This document shows, in pieces, positions 1 to 29,423 of a stretch of DNA of 64,000 nucleotides. The translations under genes and the position numbers were made by a program. How positions within the stretch are numbered: position 1 is the stretch's first letter; every line of letters begins with the position of its first letter. The stretch is taken from NCBI GenBank assembly GCA_033344795.1, contig JAWPMS010000001.1:4152757-4216756 (forward strand), read 5' to 3'. The notes under the pieces are model-generated. The model was not told where the DNA came from. It did no database searches and saw only the letters and a program-made list of their open reading frames with translations. This stretch comes from Acidimicrobiia bacterium. Its GTDB lineage: Bacteria > Actinomycetota > Acidimicrobiia > Acidimicrobiales > SHLQ01.

Positions 1-651
1 CTCGCGGAGATCACCGATCGGGTGAACGAACTCAACCTGTGGATCCTTGAACAATCACTCCGAATCGTTGGAGCACTCAATCTCGAGGAGAACCAGGAGT
101 TCTCGATCGCGGTCAACGTCTCCCCCACCGAGCTCGAGCTCCCGAACCTGGTCAGCAACATCACCGACGCACTCCTCCTCTCGGGAGTTTCGGCCGAACG
201 CCTTGTCATCGAGCTCAGCGAACGGATCGTTGCCGAACGCGGGGCGACGCTTCCCGCCATCAAGGAACTCACCGAGCTCGGCATTCAGTTGTCGCTCGAC
301 GACTTCGGCGAGGGACGCACCTCACTCGCCCACCTTCGAGGCCTCCCCATTTCTCAGATGAAGCTCGACCGTCTTCTCGTGCAACAAGCATGCATGGCAA
401 AGCAGGATCGAATCATTCTCGAGTCGCTTGTTGACCTCGCACACGATCTCGATCTCTCGGTGGTCGCTGAGGGCATCGAGACCAAGGAACACTTCGCAAC
501 GGTCATCAACGCAGGCGTTGACCTTCTCCAGGGATACGGCCTCCACCGACCCATGCCAGCCGAGTCCTTCCTTGCGCTGATGGCCCATGCGAAACCTGTC
601 GATCGGTTCGTCATCGCGAGATCGAACCAAACGAACGAGGTCGAGATCTAA
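1..651 (+). CDS. EAL-domain protein (c-di-GMP phosphodiesterase family), 5'-truncated by the window edge
   Basis: The frame is open from nt 1. EAL-family motifs are visible: AVNVS, IELSER, DDFGEGRTSL, KLDR, VAEGIET, LQGYG. Stop TAA at 649-651. Confidence 0.85.
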   Translation, partial: LAEITDRVNELNLWILEQSLRIVGALNLEENQEFSIAVNVSPTELELPNLVSNITDALLLSGVSAERLVIELSERIVAERGATLPAIKELTELGIQLSLDDFGEGRTSLAHLRGLPISQMKLDRLLVQQACMAKQDRIILESLVDLAHDLDLSVVAEGIETKEHFATVINAGVDLLQGYGLHRPMPAESFLALMAHAKPVDRFVIARSNQTNEVEI

Positions 652-1262
652 TGGCGCGACCACTGCACGAATTCACTGTCACCCCAGCATCAGACGAGGA
701 GCAGGCCAGCGAGAACTGGCTCACCCGAACGACGGCGCGAGCCTTCGCTGCTGCGATCTCCGCGCTCTTGATCGCCACACTTGTGGTCAATAGATCGAAC
801 GAGGCTCTTGCGACCGACGGAACAGCTGCCGGATCGTCGCTGTCCACCGGAACGATCTCCCTTCTCGACGACGACTCTGGACGCGCCCTGTTCGACTTCA
901 GCGACATGGCCCCCGGTCGACCCATCATCCGGTGCCTCGAAGTCATCTATGACGGCACGATCACCCCCGTCGACCTCACCCTGACCACAGAGAGCAACGG
1001 CGAGCTGGCCGAATTCCTCGACGTCAAGATTGAAGCCGGCGAGGGCGCTGGCTTCGAGTCGTGCGATGGCTTCGTTCCAGACGGTCAACTGATCTCGGGC
1101 ACATTGCAGAAGCTTTCCGATGACGGCCGACTCGACCTCGGTCGGCTCGTGAACAGCGGGGAACGCCACAGCTATCGCATCACGGTCGATATTCGCGATG
1201 TGCAGGATGCGCTCGGAAAGTCTGCTTCCGCGGACTTCATTTGGGAAGTCTCACCATCATGA
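651..1262 (+). CDS. TasA/camelysin-like exported protein, paralog 1 (SipW-cognate-type signal peptide)
   Basis: Long n-region, then h-region AFAAAISALLIATLVV, then ALATDGTAAGSSLSTGTISL and F.FSDMAPG. Size is ~200 aa. The ATG overlaps the EAL stop (TAATG). Confidence 0.6.
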   Translation: MARPLHEFTVTPASDEEQASENWLTRTTARAFAAAISALLIATLVVNRSNEALATDGTAAGSSLSTGTISLLDDDSGRALFDFSDMAPGRPIIRCLEVIYDGTITPVDLTLTTESNGELAEFLDVKIEAGEGAGFESCDGFVPDGQLISGTLQKLSDDGRLDLGRLVNSGERHSYRITVDIRDVQDALGKSASADFIWEVSPS

Positions 1263-1900
1263 GCGAGCTCACCCAACAAGAACACGACGAGCTGCTGAGG
1301 CGGAGGAGCCTGATCGCAGTCGTGGCTGCTCTGCTTCTTCTGGTCATCTCGACGCCGATCTGGCTCATCTATCGAGCGAACAGTTCGACGGCTGCCTTTG
1401 CCGATGCCGAGGTTCTCGAGAACAACCGCCTCGGTGCCGCAACACTCGACATCGAAGTCGGCAATGGTGCCGCGACGTTCGAAGCCACCAACCTCGCCCC
1501 CGGAGATGTCGTGTCCGGACAGCTCGAACTCCACAATGCGGGGACCCTCCCACTCCTCTATGAGATCTCTGGATCGTCGGATGGCGATCTCCTCGCCGAG
1601 TGGCTGCGGTTTGAGCTTTGGCTCTCCCAGGACACCTGCAACATCGCAGACCCGAAGAATCGAATCGCGCAAGACCTGAGCTTCGACCCGTCGGTAGCGT
1701 CGTTCGACGAACTGAATGTCACCGGGCGCGCGGTCGTCGCTCGTGGAGGCCTCTCGGTCGGCGAACGGCAGACGATGTGTCTCGGCGCGCGGCTCGTCCT
1801 GGAAGCCCCCAATGACGTGCAAGGCCGACGAACCGAAATCGACATCGTCGTCGACGCCGTACATGACATCGAGGCAGATCAGGATGGAGGCACCCCGTGA
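1259..1900 (+). CDS. TasA/camelysin-like exported protein, paralog 2
   Basis: h-region LIAVVAALLLLVISTPIWLI, then AAFADAEVLENNRLGAATLDIEV and NLAPGD..SGQLELHNAGTLPLLY. ATG 1259 overlaps the upstream stop (ATGA). The ORF-track start at 1241 is TTG. Confidence 0.6.
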   Translation: MSELTQQEHDELLRRRSLIAVVAALLLLVISTPIWLIYRANSSTAAFADAEVLENNRLGAATLDIEVGNGAATFEATNLAPGDVVSGQLELHNAGTLPLLYEISGSSDGDLLAEWLRFELWLSQDTCNIADPKNRIAQDLSFDPSVASFDELNVTGRAVVARGGLSVGERQTMCLGARLVLEAPNDVQGRRTEIDIVVDAVHDIEADQDGGTP

Positions 1901-2385
1901 CGCGCCGACGCGATCGTTTCATCAGTGGCCTCGCCCTGCTTGTCATCATCCTCGTATCGGTCGTACTGGGTGGGCTGGCGGCTGGCTACCGGCCAGTCAT
2001 CATCCAGACGGGCAGCATGGTCCCGACAGCTCCGCCGAAGTCGCTGATCATCGCGTCTCCTCGCGACGCGTCTGACATCGCCGTTGGAGACATCATCGTC
2101 ATGCGCCGCCCGGGCGCCACACCGGTCACCCATCGAATCATCGAAATCGAGGGCTCTGCCACCAATCGATTCGCCATCACGCAAGGTGACGCGAACGAAG
2201 GACCCGACGCCTCGCCGTACCCCCTCGACGGTGAAGATCTTGTCGCGAGATGGATCCGCCCAGGTTGGGGTGGAGCAATCCAATCACTGTTCCAACCTGG
2301 TATCGCTCTCGGCGTCATGGCGCTCGCCGTGCTGGCGCTTGTTTTTCAAGCACTTCGATTCATCTGGCGCAACCCATCGCCGATG
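1897..2385 (+). other. Signal peptidase I (S26B) module of the fusion protein
   Basis: aa 1-163: TM GLALLVIILVSVVLGGLAAG, the catalytic-type motifs GSM, THR and GDAN, and a second TM GIALGVMALAVLALVFQAL. Confidence 0.7.
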
Positions 2386-5300
2386 GCCGTCGAGGCCGCC
2401 AGTTCAGCACGTGTGATCGCCGACACGTTGTCCAAGGACGCCCCGACCACCTCGAAACCGGTGAAGCCGATTCAAGGAAAGAAGCGGCGTTCCCGCAAGC
2501 CGCTCGTCGTGGCGATCTTCCCGCTCACCGCGATGTTCACGACTGGGGTCGCGTGGGCGCTTTTCGTCTCGACCGACACGGTCGCCTCCAACGATTTCGC
2601 CACGGCAGCGTGTTTCGATGCCCAGCTCGGATCGGTCCAGTCCGGCGAGACCATCCATGCGGTGAACGGCAACGTCTCGATACCGATCAGCGCGGTCGAC
2701 CCAACCGGTTCGTTCGTCATTGCCTCGATACGGAGCGCATCGAACGAACCAGCCGACAGCGTCGTGCAAGTCCAGCTCGGAACCGGCGGTACATCGGTCG
2801 AACTCGATCGGCTCACCGACAATGGTGCGCCGCCACCGATCACCGTCTCCTGGTCGGTCGTCGAATACACGTGCGGAGTCACCGTGCAACGAGGGGTGGC
2901 CAACGGCAATGGCTCTGGCCAGGTTGACATCCCCATCGCAACCGTCGACCTCGCGACGTCTTTCGCCCTGGCTTCGACCAGCCCGGCGGCAAGCGCAACC
3001 CAATTCGACGCCGACGACAGCCTTCTTTTTGAACTCGTGTCCGCAGATACGCTGCGTGTCCGAACCGCGGGAGCGGCGATCGCGGCCACACGGTCGATCT
3101 CGTGGCAGGTCGTCAGTTTCGACGACCCGGGAGATGCGTCGATTCAGACGGTGACGGGAAGCCTTGGCGCCGCAGCGACGACCACCACCCTCGCTCTGCC
3201 ATCTCCGGTCGATCCGACGTCGACCTTCATCCTTGCCTCCGCGGCGACTGCCAGCACCGGCGCTGACATCAGCGAACGTCAGCTCCGGTCTCGCCTCATC
3301 GATGCCAACACGATGGAGGTGAGCCGACTCGGAAGTGGCACCGCCATGGAGATCTCGGTACAGGTCGTCACACTTCGAGATGGCACCTCCGTTCGTCATG
3401 GCTTCGTCGACTTCGCAGCTGGACAACCGGTTCGGACCGTGAAGATCGAGCCGGTCGACCCGCAGCGATCGACCGCGCTCTCGACCGTGGTCACCCCTGG
3501 AGTAGCCAGCGGGGGGCAGACCGACTACACCGTCGATGACCTCGCAGGAGAGGCAAGCGCCACATTTGCGATCACCGATCCAGAAACGCTCTCGGTGCAA
3601 CGAGGGAGCACCGCATCGAACGCATCGTTTGGCTGGCAGGTCATCGAGTGGGCTGGGCCCGGTTGGTGGAATCCGAACTACAACTTCCGTCAACGGATCG
3701 ACGTGGACACCGGATCTGCGGCTGCGCCTGGCGAGTACACCCTGCCATTCACGATCGATCACGCCGCACTCGTCACCGCGGGGCTGGCGCAATCGGACGG
3801 CAGCGACGTGCGCGTGCTCCGTTGGGACGGGACGGCGTGGACGGAACTCGACCGCATTCTCGATGACGGCGCATCCTGGAACCATTTGGCGACAACGCTT
3901 CGGTTCCGCACGACCGACGCCATCGATGCCGACAGCACGAGCACGTACTGGGTGTACTTCGGAAACACCTCGCCTGCGCTGGCCTTCGCTGACCCCGAGA
4001 ACGTCTGGTTGCTGACAGAGGACTTCGAATCCGGAACCCTTGGAGATTTCGAGGACAGGACCGGCAGCACCGGCTGGTATGCAGCGTTGCCCTGGACTCG
4101 CCGGATACCCGTCTCCGTTCCAGCGGGACGAACCACTGCGCCCCTGACGGACTTTCCGTTGCTCGTTTCGTTGACCAGCGCCGATCTCGCATCGAACGCC
4201 CAGGCCGATGGCTCTGACATTCGTTTCACCGCGTCCGACGGAACCACCCCCCTCCCCCATGAGATCGAAGGGTTCGATGCCGGCACCGGCACGCTCGACG
4301 CGTGGGTCCGTATCCCCACGCTCGACTCGGCAACCTCGACCACGATCTACCTCTACTACGGAGCTCCGGACGCGCCGACGCAGGAAGATGTCCGCAACAC
4401 CTGGTCGACCGAGTTCGGCGGCGCATGGCATCTGTCGCGCGATCCTGCAGGTACCGCGCCTCAGGCCGACGACTCCACCGTTCGCAATCATGACGGTCTG
4501 AGCCGCGGCGCCATGACGACTAGCGATCTCGTTCCCGGACTCATCGGCGGTGCCATCGACTTCGACGGTGTAGACGACATGTTCGAGACCGATCCGTTCG
4601 ATCTATCGGTCGGCGGGCTCACACTCTCTGGATGGGTGCGACTCGACAGCTACACCACCCAACCTCGCATCATCAACAAGGCGTACAACCCGAGCAACCG
4701 AGTCTTCGAACTGAGCGTCGATGGTTCCAATGTTCGAAGCCGTCTGGTTCTGGATGGCTCCGAGAACCTCTTGCTTGGTTCCGGGGATGGCGTGACCCTT
4801 GGTGCATGGCATCACCTGGCCATGACGTGGGACGGGGTGACGATCAAGCTCTATCTGAACGGCGTCGAGGTGGCCTCGCGAGCGGCCAGCGGCACACTCG
4901 CCAGCGATCCGGCGATGCCTGTCACGATCGGCGGAATCGAATCGCTGAATCGCCAGCTCGATGGGCTGATCGATGAAGTGCGGATCGATCGGGTCGGGCG
5001 CAGCGCAGCCTGGATTGCGGCGTCCGAATCAAACCAACGCAATCCCGGTGCCTTTCACACGTTCGGGCCTGTCGAGACGGGGAGCTGGCTCGGGCAGGGA
5101 ACGTGGACGGCTCGAAAACCGATTGCGATCGACGCAGACCTCGTCTCGGCGGATGCGACCGACTTCACTCTGCTCGTCGAGGTCATCGACCCCGAGCTGC
5201 AGGTCGGAGCGACGGCGTCGGGAAATGACTTGGTCTTCACCGACGCCAATGGAACAACTCGGCTCGATCATGTTGTCGAATCATGGGACGACGCCACCGG

Positions 5301-5454
5301 CACGCTCAGCGCCTGGGTCAACGTGCCGCTCCTGTCGTCGACCAGTGACACCGAGCTGTTCGTCTACTACGGCAACCCGTCCGCCGTCGACCAACAGGAC
5401 CCCGAAGCGGTCTTTGGACCGAACGCGGATCTCACCTTCTTGGGGGCCTCATGA
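1897..5454 (+). CDS. SipW-like (S26B, archaeal-type) signal peptidase I fused in frame to a large extracytoplasmic DUF2341/LamG passenger (1185 aa)
   Basis: The N-terminus has a TM segment plus QTGSMVPT (Ser), VTHRIIEI (His), TQGDAN and a C-terminal TM, as in SipW/Sec11-type peptidases. There is no stop codon before the ~1000-aa downstream region. The GTG start overlaps the upstream stop (GTGA). Confidence 0.75.
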   Translation: MTRRRDRFISGLALLVIILVSVVLGGLAAGYRPVIIQTGSMVPTAPPKSLIIASPRDASDIAVGDIIVMRRPGATPVTHRIIEIEGSATNRFAITQGDANEGPDASPYPLDGEDLVARWIRPGWGGAIQSLFQPGIALGVMALAVLALVFQALRFIWRNPSPMAVEAASSARVIADTLSKDAPTTSKPVKPIQGKKRRSRKPLVVAIFPLTAMFTTGVAWALFVSTDTVASNDFATAACFDAQLGSVQSGETIHAVNGNVSIPISAVDPTGSFVIASIRSASNEPADSVVQVQLGTGGTSVELDRLTDNGAPPPITVSWSVVEYTCGVTVQRGVANGNGSGQVDIPIATVDLATSFALASTSPAASATQFDADDSLLFELVSADTLRVRTAGAAIAATRSISWQVVSFDDPGDASIQTVTGSLGAAATTTTLALPSPVDPTSTFILASAATASTGADISERQLRSRLIDANTMEVSRLGSGTAMEISVQVVTLRDGTSVRHGFVDFAAGQPVRTVKIEPVDPQRSTALSTVVTPGVASGGQTDYTVDDLAGEASATFAITDPETLSVQRGSTASNASFGWQVIEWAGPGWWNPNYNFRQRIDVDTGSAAAPGEYTLPFTIDHAALVTAGLAQSDGSDVRVLRWDGTAWTELDRILDDGASWNHLATTLRFRTTDAIDADSTSTYWVYFGNTSPALAFADPENVWLLTEDFESGTLGDFEDRTGSTGWYAALPWTRRIPVSVPAGRTTAPLTDFPLLVSLTSADLASNAQADGSDIRFTASDGTTPLPHEIEGFDAGTGTLDAWVRIPTLDSATSTTIYLYYGAPDAPTQEDVRNTWSTEFGGAWHLSRDPAGTAPQADDSTVRNHDGLSRGAMTTSDLVPGLIGGAIDFDGVDDMFETDPFDLSVGGLTLSGWVRLDSYTTQPRIINKAYNPSNRVFELSVDGSNVRSRLVLDGSENLLLGSGDGVTLGAWHHLAMTWDGVTIKLYLNGVEVASRAASGTLASDPAMPVTIGGIESLNRQLDGLIDEVRIDRVGRSAAWIAASESNQRNPGAFHTFGPVETGSWLGQGTWTARKPIAIDADLVSADATDFTLLVEVIDPELQVGATASGNDLVFTDANGTTRLDHVVESWDDATGTLSAWVNVPLLSSTSDTELFVYYGNPSAVDQQDPEAVFGPNADLTFLGAS
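2476..2604 (+). other. Internal signal-peptide-like segment with a SipW-cognate motif, inside the fusion ORF
   Basis: GKKRRSRK (n-region), LVVAIFPLTAMFTTGVAWALF (h-region), VSTDTVASNDFATAA. 10 of 18 residues are identical to ALFTDQETVAGNAFATGT of TasA-like paralog 3. Confidence 0.6.
2635..3650 (+). repeat. Four divergent ~85-95-aa in-frame protein repeats of unknown family
   Basis: Each unit has (V/I)Q.G ... (I/L)P(I/V)..VD(P/L)..S(F/T).(I/L)AS ... (S/F)(W/V)(S/Q)V(V/I)(E/S/T). The units end in SWSVVEY, SWQVVSF, SVQVVTL and GWQVIEW. Confidence 0.55.
3664..5385 (+). other. Three DUF2341-like modules flanking one LamG/concanavalin-A-like module
   Basis: DUF2341-like modules: NYNFRQRIDV...SDGSDVRVLRWDG...YWVYFGN; WTRRIPVSV...ADGSDIRFTASDG...IYLYYG; WTARKPIAID...NDLVFTDANG...LFVYYGN. 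LamG: AIDFDGVDD...WHHLAMTWDG...LDGLIDEVRI. Confidence 0.6.
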
Positions 5455-5468
5455 CCTCCATCACTGCT

Positions 5469-5488
5469 CTTGCGGGCTCGCCTGCAAG
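5469..5488 (+). promoter_or_regulatory. Intercistronic hairpin (8-bp stem including one G-U pair, 4-nt loop), no T-tract
   Basis: cttgcggg-ctcg-cctgcaag, located 15 nt after the fusion-gene stop. Confidence 0.3.
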
Positions 5489-5543
5489 CAAACTCCGCCA
5501 CTCAACCATCACCACAACGACCACCTCGGTGGCGTCAACACAT

Positions 5544-5549
5544 AGGAGG
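5544..5549 (+). promoter_or_regulatory. Shine-Dalgarno AGGAGG for TasA-like paralog 3
   Basis: AGGAGG sits 8 nt upstream of ATG 5558. Confidence 0.7.
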
Positions 5550-5557
5550 TCATCACC

Positions 5558-6178
5558 ATGACCATCACGACTGAGCCCGAGGCTCCTGCGGTCAACAGAC
5601 GCAAGGGCAACGGCACGAAAATATTGGCAACACTTGCCGTGTTGTTCCTCGCAGGCACGATCTTTTCGATTGCTTCGCTTGCATTGTTCACCGACCAAGA
5701 GACTGTCGCTGGAAACGCGTTTGCAACAGGAACGGTCGACCTACTGGCGACGCCGGCAACGGCTGTGGTCACCGCAGCCGCGATGGCGCCCGGTGACCAG
5801 GTCACCGCGCCGCTCGACATCGCGAACAGCGGCTCATTGGAGCTGAGGTACTCAGCGACAACGACCACCACCGAAAACACGCTGGCTTCTCTGCTCGCGC
5901 TGACGGTGAAGACAGGAGTGACCGTGTGTGACGATGCCAACTGGGCCACCGATGGCACGGTCATCTACTCCGGAACCCTCGGGTCCACGGCAACTGCGCC
6001 TCTCTTTGGCTCCGCCGTGCAGGGTGCGCAAGGTGGCGACAGAGTGCTTGCCGCTGGCGCGAACGAAGCGTTGTGCATCAACGTGACATTGCCGCTCGCA
6101 ACCGGCAACGCCGCCCAGAACATCACCACCACTGCCACGTTCGCGTTCGACGCAGAACAAACAGCGAACAATCCATAA
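5558..6178 (+). CDS. TasA/camelysin-like exported protein, paralog 3 (most canonical)
   Basis: NRRKGNGTK, then ILATLAVLFLAGTIFSIASLALF, then TDQETVAGNAFATGTVDL. MAPGD..TAPLDIANSGSLELRY. C-terminal FAFDAEQ. Confidence 0.75.
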   Translation: MTITTEPEAPAVNRRKGNGTKILATLAVLFLAGTIFSIASLALFTDQETVAGNAFATGTVDLLATPATAVVTAAAMAPGDQVTAPLDIANSGSLELRYSATTTTTENTLASLLALTVKTGVTVCDDANWATDGTVIYSGTLGSTATAPLFGSAVQGAQGGDRVLAAGANEALCINVTLPLATGNAAQNITTTATFAFDAEQTANNP

Positions 6179-6201
6179 GCCCCGGCGGTAACAGCGTGGT
6201 G

Positions 6202-9200
6202 ATGACCCTGAGCGTTCACAGGAGGGCGGCGGCAGCCGCCCTCCTCTGCGCGCTCGCAGTCATTGTCACGATGAGCGCGGTTGCCGCGGCGAACGTTGCA
6301 CAAGACGACCCCACGGCAGTACCTGGCATCCCTCTCATCAGCGTCGATGGCGACGCCAAAGCCGAAGCAGGTCGACCGTATCTGCTCGACGTAACCGTCG
6401 AAGGCATCGACCAATCCCAAGTCTCCGAGTGGACGGTCTCGTGGGGTGATGGCACGGCTACCAAAGGCACAGGTTCACCTGGCATTGTCGAACACGTCTA
6501 CGAGCATGTCGGGTCCGCACACCAGATAACCGTGAGCGTTATCACCTCAGGCGGCGACACCCTCAGCAACGCCGCTCTTGTCATCTCCAACTACGACACC
6601 GCCAGGGCGCCAACACTCCATCGCATCACGGGCCAGCCGGCGTCAGACCAGCTGGTGGGCGACGCCACGGACAACATCGCATCGGTACTCGTTGGCGCCG
6701 ATGGAGTTCTCTACGCGATCGACGACGTTGCCAACACGATCCTTCGCTTTGATCTCGATCGGAAGACCCGATTCGAGGTGCCTCTCGACCGAGAATCGGT
6801 CGTCCGCCGACCCCGAGCCATGGCCTTCGACGCAGAGGGGCATCTTCTCGTGGCCGACGCAAGCTCGAACGCAATCCATCAGATCGACGTGGATAGTGGT
6901 CAGATCGTGCGAACGATCGCCGGCGACGAGCACCTCAACCGACCCAGCGCGTTGATCATCGGCCCACAGGGCGACCTCTATGTGACGGACGCTGCCGACG
7001 ACGACATCGAACGGTTCGATTTCACCACCGGTCGGCACGTCAGCACCTTTGCGACCTTCGAACCGGGAGCGACGCCAACCTCGCTCGTCTCGGGCCCCAA
7101 CGACACGTTGCTCGTGTCATTGCCAGGTGCCGGCCGAATCGCCTCGGTTTCCAGTTCCGGCCAGGTCGCCAATTTTGGAGCCGATGTCACCACACCAGAT
7201 CAACTCGCGGTTGGGCCCGATGGCGCGCTTTGGGTCTCCGACTACTGGAACGACACCGTCGAGCGCTTCGATCTGAAGTCAGGCGAGACGCTGGACCGAG
7301 AACCAATCGTTGAGGGCACTGCCGGCCCGCGGGGGTTGTCATTCGCACCCGATGTCTCGGTGACGGTCATCGCCCCTTCTGACGCGCCGAGCTCTGACCC
7401 GTCACCCGATGAGCTGACCGCACAAGAGTGGCGCGAGTCGTTGCCCGAGGATCAAAACATCGACGAGCTGATCTTCGTGGCCAACGATGGTGAAGCCGAG
7501 CCCCAGCTCGACTTCATTGCACAATCCGATGACTACATTGCCGTGATCGCCGACAACACCATCGAAGTGGCCCTCGATCAAGCAGAATCCGATCAACTCG
7601 TCACCATGGAGCTCGAGGACGCCACCGAAAAGCCTCCGTCCGGAGCATCGACGGACACCCGTGTCGCATTCGACGACGTCTACGACGGAATCGACGCGGT
7701 GTATTCCGACGACGAGGGTGAGCTCGAATACAGCTTCATCATCGAGCCCGGAGCGGATGTCGACGACATCTCACTGGACTTCGGTGGAGCGGAGACTCTT
7801 CAGATCACCGAACAAGGCGACCTGTTCATCGACGTGTCCGAGGGACCTGATCTACTCTCCACGGCACCCTTCACCTTCCAGTTCATCGATGGTCGACGAG
7901 TTGTCATCGAGAGCTCATACGTCATCCGACCGGACGGCAGGGTGGGATTTGGTCTCGGAGCGTACGACCCCACACGACCGGTCGTGATCGACCCAACGCT
8001 CACCGCTGCGACGAACCTCCTCATGGTCACCGGTACCGGCACTGCTGTCGGAACCGACGCCACCAAACAAGCCCTGTTTCAAAGCTGGGGCTGGACCGTC
8101 ACGCTCATCGACGACGACAGCGTCGGCTCCTTTGCTGGCGCCGCGGCTGCAAATGATGTGTTGTACGTGAGCGGCACGGCCCGATTCGACATCGCCTACG
8201 ACGTTCGAGATCTGGACATCGGCATCGTGAATGAGAATTTCTCGGCTTGGAACGGCCTACTCAACTACGGCTCTCAACCTCAAGCCTTCACCACAGGCAC
8301 AACCCTCAACATCGTCGACAACTCGCACTACATCACGTCACCGTTTGCCACTGGATCCTTGGCGATTCACAGCGTGGGTGATGACATCAACTACTGGCCG
8401 TCCGATAGCGCCCCGCTACCCGCTGGTGTCACCGTTCTGGCTGAATCGCCCACGTCCACCAATCATGAGGCCCTCCACGTCGCCGAGACTGGGACCACGT
8501 TGTATTCCGCCTTCACGGCCGTGAATCGCCGGGTCTGGTTCCCGAGTGACTACGCCGACCCGGCAAACTACACCACCGACTACGAGACGTTGCTGGAGCG
8601 CTCCCTCGACTGGGCTGCCGGGAACGACGCTCCGCCTGCCGCGCCTCAGTCCATCGCGGTGGCGAACCCCGACACTGCGTCAACAGCGCAGGATTTGGCC
8701 ACCACTCTCGACCCGAGTGCGAACGACGCCGATGCCGAGGGTGACCCGATCGTCGAGATCGACGTGACCGACCCAGCCAATGGCAGCGTGGTCATCAACG
8801 GGGACGAAACGGTGACGTACACCCCAGACCCTGGGTATACGGGATCTGACTCGTTCGACTATTGGGCGATCGACTCAGGCGCCGGTCTGACGAACTATTG
8901 GGGCTTGGCCGGAGGAGGCATCGATTCTGTCGGTTCTGCCAACGGCGCCTTGTCTGGCACCACGACGGTGCCCGGTGACTTCGGAGACGCCCTGTCCTTT
9001 AACGAGATCAACGACCGGGTGACCGTGCCTGACTTCGCCTATGGATCAGACTTCTCTCTGTCCTTCGAGTTCAAGCTAGACGACAACACCGGATCGCTGT
9101 TTCAGTACGTGTACAGCCATGGCGACATCAACGCGGTGAACTCGGTGAACGTCTTCATCAACGAGGCGTCGCACGGATCAGACCCCAACATCCTTCGTAC

Positions 9201-27913: not shown

Positions 27914-28582
27914 CTATTCGACTTCCCAGTTGTAGAAGCCTTCTTCGCTCGGCTCGTGCTGTTCGGCGTCGAGCACTTCTCCCGCAGCTTTGGCGTTTTG
28001 GATGAAACGTCGCAATGCCGACGGGTCCTTCTTGCCGGGTGCACTCTCGACGCCACTGGCCACGTCCACGCCCCACGGCTTGACCGCTGCGATTGCATCA
28101 GCGACGTTCTCGGGGTTCAGGCCTCCGGCGAGCAGAATTCGACGATCCATCGGCAGCGACTCGGTGAGTCGCCAGTCGAAGACCTCACCTGCACCGGGCG
28201 TCGGAGCGTCGACAAGGATGATGGGCACCAAGAACTCGCTTGCCCGACGAGCCTGCTCGGTTCCCGCAGCAACCGCCTTGATCACCGTCGGTACACGCTC
28301 GGCGACCCATGCAACTTCGTCGGGGCTCTCGTTGCCATGGAGTTGCGCTGCCCGAAGGCCGACGGTGTGGACGATGTCGACCACCCGCTCCTTGGACTCG
28401 TTGCGGAAAATGCCGACCGTCAAGGTCTCGGCGGGGATTCGTGCGGCGATGTCTCGAGCTCGGGTCGTTGCGATCTGACGGGTAGAACCCGAGACGAAGT
28501 TCAGTCCCAACGAATCGGCACCAAGAGCCACAGCCAACAAGGCATCGTCGACGTCCGTCACGCCACAGATCTTCACAAACAC
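27914..28582 (-). CDS. trpF: Phosphoribosylanthranilate isomerase TrpF
   Basis: MFVKICGVT....A......GAD.LG(L)NF...S.R.I...LAGGL.PENV....PWGVDV(A)SGVE..PG.KD. Confidence 0.9.
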   Translation of the reverse strand: MFVKICGVTDVDDALLAVALGADSLGLNFVSGSTRQIATTRARDIAARIPAETLTVGIFRNESKERVVDIVHTVGLRAAQLHGNESPDEVAWVAERVPTVIKAVAAGTEQARRASEFLVPIILVDAPTPGAGEVFDWRLTESLPMDRRILLAGGLNPENVADAIAAVKPWGVDVASGVESAPGKKDPSALRRFIQNAKAAGEVLDAEQHEPSEEGFYNWEVE

Positions 28583-28583
28583 G

Positions 28584-29423
28584 CTAGGTACCCAACCGTT
28601 CGGTCAGTCCGTCCGATTCTTCGGCGACCGACGTGGGCAGCTCGGCGCCCCCTGCCGCGTCGAGGAGTGCTCGGACACCGTCGGCTGGTCCGCGGTGTTT
28701 GACGAGCGATTCGCCGATGAGGACCGCATCGAATCCGGCCTCGACGAGGGCGGGAATGTCCTGTGGTCCGCCGATACCAGACTCGGCAATGCGCAGCGCC
28801 TCAGCGGGCAACGACGCAGCAACACGGGCAGCTCGGTCCACATCGACCTCAAATGTTCGCAGATCGCGCTGGTTGACTCCGATGATCGTGCCCCCTACGG
28901 CGATGGCCCGCTCGGCCTCGGCTTCGTCATGCACTTCGATCAGTGCATCGAGGCCGACCTCGGTCGCGAGAGAAAAGAAATCGGTGAGTTCAGCATCGTC
29001 GAGCGCAGCAACGATCAGCAGCACACAATCGGCACCCATCAACCGAGCATCGACAACGTCATTGGGGGAGACCGTGAAGTCCTTGCGGAGAATTGGGATC
29101 TCGACCGCCTCGCGAACCGCACGCAGATCAGCGACCGAACCGCCGAAGTACTCCTCGTCGGTCAGCACGGAGCAACAAGCTGCGCCCCCGGCTGCATAGC
29201 TCGAGGCGAGCTCGGCCGGGTCGAGGTCGGGATCGAGGTCGCCCTTCGATGGGGAGCGCCGTTTCACTTCTGCGATCACGCCGAGCGGAGCCGCCGCGCG
29301 TAGCGCGGCACCAAATCCACGCGCCGGAGAGAGGTCGCCAACCAGTTCGACCAGCTGATCGACCGATCGGTCGTCATCGGCAGCCGCAGCTCTGTGCGAC
29401 GCGAGGATCCCGTCGAGGTACAT
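28584..29423 (-). CDS. trpC: Indole-3-glycerol-phosphate synthase TrpC
   Basis: MYLDGI...VIAEVKRRSPSKG...ILRKDF...D.VLLI.AAL...L...A...GLDALIEVH...IGVNQRDL.TF.VD...ESG. Confidence 0.9.
   Translation of the reverse strand: MYLDGILASHRAAAADDDRSVDQLVELVGDLSPARGFGAALRAAAPLGVIAEVKRRSPSKGDLDPDLDPAELASSYAAGGAACCSVLTDEEYFGGSVADLRAVREAVEIPILRKDFTVSPNDVVDARLMGADCVLLIVAALDDAELTDFFSLATEVGLDALIEVHDEAEAERAIAVGGTIIGVNQRDLRTFEVDVDRAARVAASLPAEALRIAESGIGGPQDIPALVEAGFDAVLIGESLVKHRGPADGVRALLDAAGGAELPTSVAEESDGLTERLGT

Follow-up and report, generated by a model that had tools for sequence, protein, structure and literature searches.

The locus and the fused reading frame

We analysed, by computational means only, a window of 64,000 nucleotides from an Acidimicrobiia bacterium (GenBank assembly GCA_033344795.1, contig JAWPMS010000001.1, positions 4,152,757 to 4,216,756 of the forward strand). 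Near its start, among genes for TasA-like proteins, lies a gene that reads from a signal peptidase domain of the S26B (SEC11/SipW) type, through a basic linker and a predicted internal signal peptide, into a large passenger (Table 1). The frame runs for 1185 codons without an internal stop, as a preliminary description of this DNA had claimed. Its GTG start codon overlaps the stop codon of the upstream TasA-like open reading frame (ORF) at 1241..1900 (GTGA) and has a GGAGG 7 nt upstream; the fused gene is predicted to be translationally coupled to this TasA/camelysin-like gene. A scan for promoters and terminators over nt 1-6400 returned nothing exceeding the shuffled expectation.

Table 1 Features of the fused gene and of its neighbours, in window positions. 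Abbreviations: transmembrane segment (TM), AlphaFold2 (AF2), hidden Markov model (HMM).
Feature	Residues (aa)	Position (nt)	Strand	Basis or remark
EAL domain at the C-terminal end of a gene truncated by the window start		22..651	+	EAL 144.6 bits
Small secreted protein with N-terminal hydrophobic segment, possibly TasA-like		651..1262	+	no HMM match; conserved in syntenic loci
TasA/camelysin-like gene, putative minor subunit		1241..1900	+	PF12389 26.7 bits (cutoff 22.5)
Complete fusion ORF	1-1185	1897..5454	+	peptidase, linker, internal signal peptide, passenger; stop-free frame
S26B (SEC11/SipW-type) signal peptidase domain	1-160	1897..2376	+	TIGR02228, invariant catalytic residues, AF2, Foldseek
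TM1	9-27	1921-1977	+	hydropathy
Catalytic set: Ser40; His79; Asp98; Asp104	40; 79; 98; 104	2014-2016; 2131-2133; 2188-2190; 2206-2208	+	
TM2	135-153	2299-2355	+	hydropathy
Cytoplasmic linker (predicted)	156-201	2362..2499	+	ends in basic n-region GKKRRSRK, nt 2476-2499
Third hydrophobic segment (TM3), predicted internal signal h/c-region, PLVVAIFPLTAMFTTGVAWA	202-221	2500..2559	+	hydropathy, homolog alignment
TasA/TapA-type post-cleavage motif, donor-strand-like predicted mature N-terminus, LFVSTDTVASNDFATAA	222-238	2560..2610	+	profile alignment
Compact module of four beta-sandwich repeats (~90 aa each)	239-590	2611..3666	+	AF2; no Pfam family
DUF2341, copy 1	771-836	4207..4404	+	PF10102 108.1 bits over two stretches
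Laminin_G_3 / concanavalin-A-like lectin domain	891-1041	4567..5019	+	PF13385 82.1 bits, E 6.1e-23
DUF2341, copy 2	1109-1173	5221..5415	+	PF10102 51.2 bits on aa 1051-1185
TasA-family protein, putative major fibre subunit		5558..6178	+	PF12389 38.6 bits; TIGR04088 16.6 bits, subthreshold
Predicted surface adhesin, 5040 aa		6073..21195		DUF7948, FG-GAP, Big_9, LamG

An architecture of this kind is rare a priori, and it could be suspected of being an assembly or sequencing artefact, or a recent pseudogene, in which a lost stop or a frameshift joined two adjacent genes; a missed stop or frameshift around nt 2380-2480 had been named as a concern at the outset. Two independent assemblies from different sequencing runs, reached via the TasA-like neighbour (L008 and L009), align with positions 1..6200 of the window at 95.0% nucleotide identity, with 308-309 mismatches and no gap. 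In both, the 1185-aa ORF is called as one gene, and 1151 of its 1185 residues are identical. Between the window and L008, the ratio of nonsynonymous to synonymous substitution rates (dN/dS) is 0.05 in the peptidase, 0.32 in the linker, 0.04 in TM3 and the motif, and 0.08-0.09 in the passenger. Synonymous changes prevail across the junction, and the reading frame is therefore under selection through the junction. Full-length collinear orthologs with 52-53% identity are found in two Acidimicrobiia genome bins (L002 9860..13426, 1188 aa; L003 4193..8044). All four orthologous loci (L002, L003, L008 and L009) keep a single fused ORF in place of two separate genes.

The fusion is also kept in at least 20 clusters at 50% identity. 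An exhaustive search with phmmer covered 1.84 billion cluster representatives; matches of 900-1356 aa span the internal signal (P0081-P0085, P0087, P0088, P0096, P0102, P0112 and others), and the whole architecture of peptidase, signal, four repeats, DUF2341, LamG_3 and DUF2341 persists at 37-45% identity in P0083, P0087, P0088, P0102 and P0112. Gap-free independent assemblies and distant orthologs that keep the frame thus dispose of the missed stop or frameshift, and the artefact reading is already refuted by the comparative data. Some metagenome homologs (P0004, P0006, P0009, P0084 and P0096) end in Arg/Pro-rich tails that resemble out-of-frame translation. These tails are probably assembly frameshifts in those bins, which make the proteins seem shorter.

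Peptidase domain, internal signal and passenger

The N-terminal domain matches TIGR02228 (sigpep_I_arch) over aa 13-121 with 66.9 bits, against a cutoff of 51.85, and contains the motifs GSM (Ser40), THR (His79) and GDAN (Asp98). Ser40, His79, Asp98 and Asp104 are invariant across 37 homologs, and the domain has a Ser/His pair without a catalytic Lys; the catalytic roles of the Ser/His/Asp residues are known from Sec11 and SipW. In an AF2 model of aa 1-340, the predicted local distance difference test (pLDDT) score of the peptidase domain exceeds 90, and the first passenger repeat is likewise modelled with confidence. Foldseek ranks human SEC11C and SEC11A first and second (7p2q_A and 7p2p_A; TM-score 0.59-0.61 on the target), and the PDB sequence matches of aa 1-160 are to SEC11A/C only, with GSM, HR and GDNN of SEC11A in alignment. 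The profile match above cutoff, the intact catalytic residues and the SEC11 fold bear out the earlier view of aa 1-160 as a complete archaeal-type S26B peptidase. The domain looks active, and we predict that it is proteolytic. Because the Bacillus SipW equivalog NF046067 gives 33.4 bits and its cutoff of 190 is not reached, the peptidase is SipW-like in type and no SipW ortholog. No other S26 domain was found in the 64-kb window; a weak S26 match at 27917-28603 was rejected as TrpF.

Hydropathy identifies exactly three hydrophobic segments in the whole 1185-aa protein, at aa 9-27, 135-153 and 203-221. The N-terminal tail carries four Arg, and the linker (aa 156-200) has charges of +10/-3. Hydropathy and charge thus agree with the topology already proposed, in which there are only these three segments and the positive-inside rule is obeyed, and the basic stretch GKKRRSRK lies where it had been placed. 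The linker is modelled by AF2 with low confidence, and its length and sequence differ among orthologs; the Arg/Lys cluster is always retained.

The predicted cleavage site follows Ala221, between nt 2559 and 2560, in the context A219-W220-A221/L222-F223...N232-x-F234. Four unfused homologs (P0069, P0070, P0076 and P0077) start with a Met and a basic n-region that fall exactly on the internal KKRRSRK in the alignment, and their h-region falls on aa 202-221. As these unfused passenger homologs begin exactly there, positional homology identifies the internal segment as a signal peptide, for which export and cleavage are predicted. In the genomic context of P0069 and P0077 no peptidase gene adjoins, so that these two do not document an ancestral state of two adjacent genes.

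The residues around the site are strongly constrained. Position -3 is A, S, V or G and position -1 is A, S, G or T in all 28 family members; +2 is Phe or Tyr in 27 of the 28, +1 is mostly Leu, and Val, Asn, Phe and Thr stand at +8, +11, +13 and +15. A set of 120 TasA-family pre-proteins, relatives of the 5558 gene product, has the same residues at these positions. An HMM of the N-termini of TasA-like major subunits proved too narrow, and we therefore adopted a profile-profile comparison with permutation, in which the 28 family segments were compared by hhalign with the 120 TasA-family N-termini. The two profiles align in register with a probability of 94.5% (P = 7.8e-8, score 35.7). Permuting all columns gave a mean score of 9.1 and a maximum of 15.1, permuting only the post-site columns gave a mean of 12.4 and a maximum of 19.7, and reversing the alignment gave 9.7. 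The resemblance to the TasA-like gene at 5558, first noticed as a match of motifs, is therefore real and far above chance at the level of family profiles. In the AF2 model, aa 223-242 have a pLDDT below 50, and such low-confidence, flexible residues fit an exposed cleavage site and a free strand.

The description of a large exported-type passenger holds, and its length is corrected from ~950 aa to ~964 aa if the cut follows Ala221. The four-repeat module is all-beta and modelled with high confidence (pLDDT 93.8, predicted TM-score 0.91). A Pfam search matched it to no family, and Foldseek found a loose likeness (TM ~0.3) to the PCSK9 C-terminal domain and PLP1 APC-beta. The same module occurs as free secreted proteins of ~390 aa, namely, the unfused homologs P0069, P0070, P0076 and P0077. 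Two cysteines, Cys239 (2611..2613) and Cys326 (2872..2874), are invariant in three full-length orthologs. The former stands in C-F-D after the motif and is present in 28 of 28 family members and in the unfused homologs; the latter stands in Y-x-C-G-V, which ends repeat 1. A Cys239-Cys326 disulfide may lock the N-terminal strand to the first repeat. The stretch between the repeats and the first DUF2341 copy (aa 590-770, 3664..4206) may hold a third, degenerate DUF2341 copy, at 17 bits and below the cutoff of 23.4. A search of the fusion with PF12389 (TasA/camelysin, Peptidase_M73) gave no match; the passenger would therefore be a TapA-like accessory by analogy and no member of the TasA family, with only the N-terminal strand motif in common.

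Sister fusions and neighbouring genes

Fusion to a passenger is not limited to the window-type proteins. We retrieved 204 proteins that contain this peptidase domain; in 69 of them, the chain continues for at least 90 aa past its end. About 30 of these are of the window type, and in two, P0104 and P0110, the same kind of peptidase is fused to a genuine TasA-family protein (PF12389). TIGR04088, the curated 34-position model of the SipW-type signal, matches internally above its cutoff of 19 in P0104 (23.6 bits, residues 208-239) and in P0198 (20.1 bits). P0104 (386 aa, L010 8001..9161) occupies the corresponding slot of the syntenic cluster L010. There, this single gene fills the slot of both the fusion and the TasA-like major subunit, with the peptidase joined straight to the latter. 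P0104 and P0110 suggest passenger swapping or deletion between similar signal-coding regions. The final residues of P0010 (225 aa), ...NPTVMDQQDPSPGSDADLQIVGAP, are similar to those that close the window protein, GNPSAVDQQDPEAVFGPNADLTFLGAS, as if P0010 had lost the whole passenger and retained the tail alone.

The SipW-type motif also precedes other passengers, such as a lamin-tail domain in P0061 and a cupredoxin in P0103, a protein with two peptidase domains; P0137, P0198 and P0215 are further cases. The order in P0103 is two tandem S26B domains, SipW-type signal and cupredoxin, and P0186 consists of two tandem S26B domains alone. Elsewhere the S26B domain is fused to sensors, as in the histidine kinase P0185 (HisKA and HATPase), or to GGDEF-EAL, and haloarchaeal forms have extra TM segments after the peptidase. 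About 20 Micrococcales proteins from isolate genomes combine an internal AxA-type signal with a C-terminal LPXTG-like sorting signal. Such fusions would have to be cut free to function. Examples of 385-503 aa are P0014, P0018, P0024, P0034, P0042, P0049, P0051, P0161, P0175 and P0177, from the cultivable hosts Mycetocola, Nesterenkonia, Plantibacter, Glutamicibacter and Isoptericola. Their layout runs from the S26B domain, basic linker and AxA signal to an uncharacterised domain, LPXTG-like motif, TM segment and basic tail, which makes each of them in effect a peptidase joined to a substrate of the sortase type. Public annotation names these fusions plainly 'signal peptidase I'.

The gene cut by the window start has full-length equivalents in four syntenic loci (L008 2116..5094, L002 5285..8530, L003 149..3223 and L010 3858..6821), which match the peptidase HMM at E values of 1e-28 to 1e-30. 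In every syntenic locus, this upstream gene encodes ~1000 aa with a second S26B domain, in which GSM, THR and GDAN are intact; a region with several TM segments comes next, and then GGDEF and EAL. Two different peptidase fusions are thus present in the locus, and the upstream one would link signal-peptide processing to the turnover of cyclic di-GMP (c-di-GMP). The TasA/camelysin-like gene at 1241..1900 is syntenic in L002, L003, L008 and L010. For the highly conserved TasA-family gene at 5558, there are 2224 homologs, the top 120 at 60-98% identity, and these carry source names of TasA family, SipW-dependent-type signal peptide-containing, or CalY family.

Downstream, the 5040-aa predicted adhesin starts with PKD/beta-propeller-like, DUF7948, Big_9, LamG_3 and FG-GAP regions. 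It continues with about eight long repeats, each opening with ...NSTGD.GDA.PGDG.CDTG....ECTLRAAIEEAN..., and has a LamG-like end. Translation probably begins at a Met close to nt 6205, which gives the protein an ordinary signal of the AxA type. Beyond it lie a gene for an 847-aa protein and then housekeeping genes.

Proposed processing, alternatives and known systems

The continuous frame, the S26B identity of the first domain, the unfused homologs, the register of the motif and the sister fusions all support the earlier reading of a peptidase fused to a cognate-type substrate. We propose, with a probability of roughly 0.65, that the protein is a self-contained pre-protein whose S26B domain, in cis or in trans, frees a TapA-like nucleator or tip adhesin for a TasA-like fibre. 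Judging from hydropathy and charge, TM1 would insert N-in/C-out and place the catalytic domain outside. TM2 would bring the chain back to the cytoplasm, where the basic linker would remain, and the third hydrophobic segment would act as an ordinary signal h-region that threads the passenger out via Sec. An aromatic residue at +2 is poorly accepted by peptidases of the LepB type, and a dedicated enzyme of the endoplasmic reticulum (ER) type would be needed because the residue at P2' is aromatic. The ER-type peptidase domain would cut after A219-W220-A221, at a predicted site with small residues at -3/-1 and an aromatic +2, as in TasA. Three candidates could make the cut: the fused domain itself, acting in cis; another copy nearby, acting in trans; or the locus's second peptidase. 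TasA itself has Phe at P2' and requires SipW (PMC10269814).

The freed passenger would start with the TasA/TapA-like N-terminal strand LFVSTDTVASNDF, followed by its lectin-like modules. In B. subtilis, residues 28-38 of mature TasA form the donor strand, and TapA mimics this donor strand to nucleate fibres (PMC9674648). Most plausibly, the passenger would serve as the nucleator, cap or tip adhesin of a fibre built from the three neighbouring TasA-like subunits, and the three-TM peptidase would stay in the membrane after the cut. Fusion would ensure co-expression, a 1:1 stoichiometry and co-localisation of the enzyme and its first substrate.

Several points weigh against this proposal. TIGR04088 and TIGR04089 gave no match to the internal segment at E values up to 10 (aa 184-268), and since the window sequence by itself misses TIGR04088, the claim of a TasA/SipW-type signal rests on family-level evidence. 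This profile gives the neighbouring TasA-like gene at 5558 itself just 16.6 bits (cutoff 19). When a narrow HMM of 120 TasA-major N-termini was run against the six-frame ORFs of the window, the internal segment reached only a domain E of 0.55; the paralogs at 1241 and 651 likewise scored weakly. TM3 and the cleavage region have AF2 pLDDT values of 39-65, and the Foldseek neighbours of the passenger repeat module give no functional lead. We infer the role as fibre nucleator only from the N-terminal motif and the gene context. The syntenic loci carry a second S26B domain, so that the fused domain need not be the one that cuts, and a spent signal peptide that stays tethered could block the enzyme after the cut.

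The main rival is an uncleaved anchor or scaffold, in which TM3 would be permanent and the passenger would be an accessory module, comparable to SPC22/23 or DUF5305, or would anchor the fibre via its donor-strand-like segment. Fusions of signal peptidase I (SPase I) to the accessory protein DUF5305 have been reported, and TasA-like loci often encode membrane anchors (bioRxiv 10.64898/2026.01.04.697558). The haloarchaeal relatives with extra TM segments and the missing TIGR04088 match point in the same direction. We nevertheless consider this rival unlikely. A permanent anchor would have no need of a conserved A-x-A-like site, and small residues stand at -3/-1 in 28 of 28 family members, with the post-site motif in register with cleaved TasA-family signals. 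Moreover, in the unfused homologs this segment serves as the N-terminal signal peptide, and the passengers of the sister fusions, a TasA subunit or LPXTG proteins, need release.

Far less probable is a pseudo-enzyme, that is, a non-proteolytic S26B domain acting as an assembly chaperone for the passenger or the TasA-like subunits in the manner of Streptococcus pyogenes SipA. SipA (PDB 4n31) is indeed among the Foldseek structural neighbours, and the second, separate S26B domain of the locus could do the cutting. However, none of the four catalytic residues varies across 37 homologs, purifying selection on the domain is strong (dN/dS 0.05) and its TIGR02228 match exceeds the cutoff. A further point is that chaperones of the SipA type are without catalytic residues. 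We give even less weight to the idea that one ORF yields two proteins that are never linked, the substrate being translated from an internal start. In-frame candidates exist upstream of the basic region, ATG at 2383 (Met163) and GTG at 2413 (Val173); a GTG previously placed at 2411 is out of frame. We saw no Shine-Dalgarno sequence at a suitable distance from either codon, Met163 is missing in the orthologs L002 and L003, and L008, the 95%-identical strain, has Glu in place of Val173. Lacking both a ribosome-binding site and a conserved start codon, the separately translated substrate put forward in the preliminary description is not supported, and with no stop to end the peptidase the full-length fusion would be made anyway. 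As for two genes joined by error, the frameshift-like tails of some metagenome-assembled homologs (P0004, P0006 and P0009) and the rarity of the architecture count for little beside the gap-free agreement over 6.2 kb, the dominance of synonymous changes across the junction and the fusions kept in orthologs and clusters.

Beyond the cleaved pre-protein proposed for this locus, a broader reading can be put forward only tentatively. Substrate-fused ER-type peptidases could be a general and as yet undescribed secretion device of Actinomycetota, in which the enzyme is made together with its first substrate and cuts it in cis, while the spent signal peptide, retained as a tethered third helix, may gate or limit further turnover. 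A fibre nucleator or anchor, or in Micrococcales an LPXTG wall protein, would then be placed where the remaining subunits get processed, and the peptidase::GGDEF-EAL fusion of the locus would couple substrate processing to c-di-GMP signalling.

Signal peptidases are viewed as separate enzymes, which encounter their substrates through diffusion within the membrane. If our proposal is true, the fusion offers a built-in enzyme-substrate pair with which to study how S26B enzymes recognise and position signal peptides, and whether they cut in cis or in trans; we know of no structural data for bacterial and archaeal S26B enzymes. It would also point to how TasA-like biofilm fibres are assembled outside Firmicutes, with a nucleator or tip protein delivered stoichiometrically together with its processing enzyme. 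Further, it would mean that hundreds of database entries named only 'signal peptidase I' conceal large passengers, among them lectin-like adhesins, TasA subunits, LPXTG proteins and cupredoxins, and some of these fusions sit in cultivated Micrococcales, where genetics is possible.

The closest solved structures are those of SEC11A and SEC11C, which have the catalytic set of Ser, His and Asp in common with aa 1-160. Unlike the window protein, SEC11 has one TM segment and works in a four-subunit complex, and to our knowledge it has never been found joined to a substrate. S. pyogenes SipA stands alone as a protein, belongs to the bacterial S26A type and is without catalytic residues. Similar to SipA/LepA, which serves pilus polymerisation (PDB 4n31), the window protein is a signal-peptidase fold dedicated to one surface-fibre locus; unlike SipA, it is of the S26B type and keeps all catalytic residues.

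The nearest functional parallel is the tapA-sipW-tasA operon of Bacillus subtilis, in which the ER-type signal peptidase SipW serves TasA and TapA as a dedicated enzyme. As in that system, the gene for an S26B Ser/His peptidase lies among those for TasA-family proteins, and the substrates have small residues at -3/-1, an aromatic P2' and the strand motif (A/L-F-x-D...N-x-F) (PMC9674648, PMC10269814). TapA, an accessory protein, carries a signal of this type and nucleates fibres with its N-terminal donor strand (PMC9674648). In contrast to the operon, a single polypeptide here comprises the peptidase and, after it, an accessory-type substrate. The passenger is not homologous to TapA and consists of four novel beta-sandwich repeats, DUF2341 and LamG. 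Unlike for Bacillus SipW, the host is an actinobacterium of the Acidimicrobiia and the NF046067 cutoff is missed.

The locus also resembles the TasA-like matrix-fibre loci (AbpX/AbpA/Tafi) of archaea and bacteria, in which a dedicated SPase I is encoded together with minor subunits, tip proteins and anchors, the predicted tip proteins joining by donor-strand complementation (bioRxiv 10.64898/2026.01.04.697558). Shared features are a TIGR02228-type SPase I, major and minor subunits, LPXTG/SLH anchors and c-di-GMP enzymes, and in those loci, too, SPase I can be fused to a partner protein. The DUF5305::SPase I proteins differ from the window protein: they are fusions to an accessory subunit without a substrate signal peptide, and no internal cleavable signal is described for them (10.64898/2026.01.04.697558). 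In the open-access papers and bioRxiv preprints searched, we found no account of a signal peptidase covalently linked to a substrate that brings its own signal peptide, in line with the initial remark that such a link is undescribed for SipW systems, and the DUF5305 accessory fusion is the nearest case. The components (SipW, TasA and TapA) and the type of locus are already known; what appears to be new is the covalent joining of peptidase and substrate.

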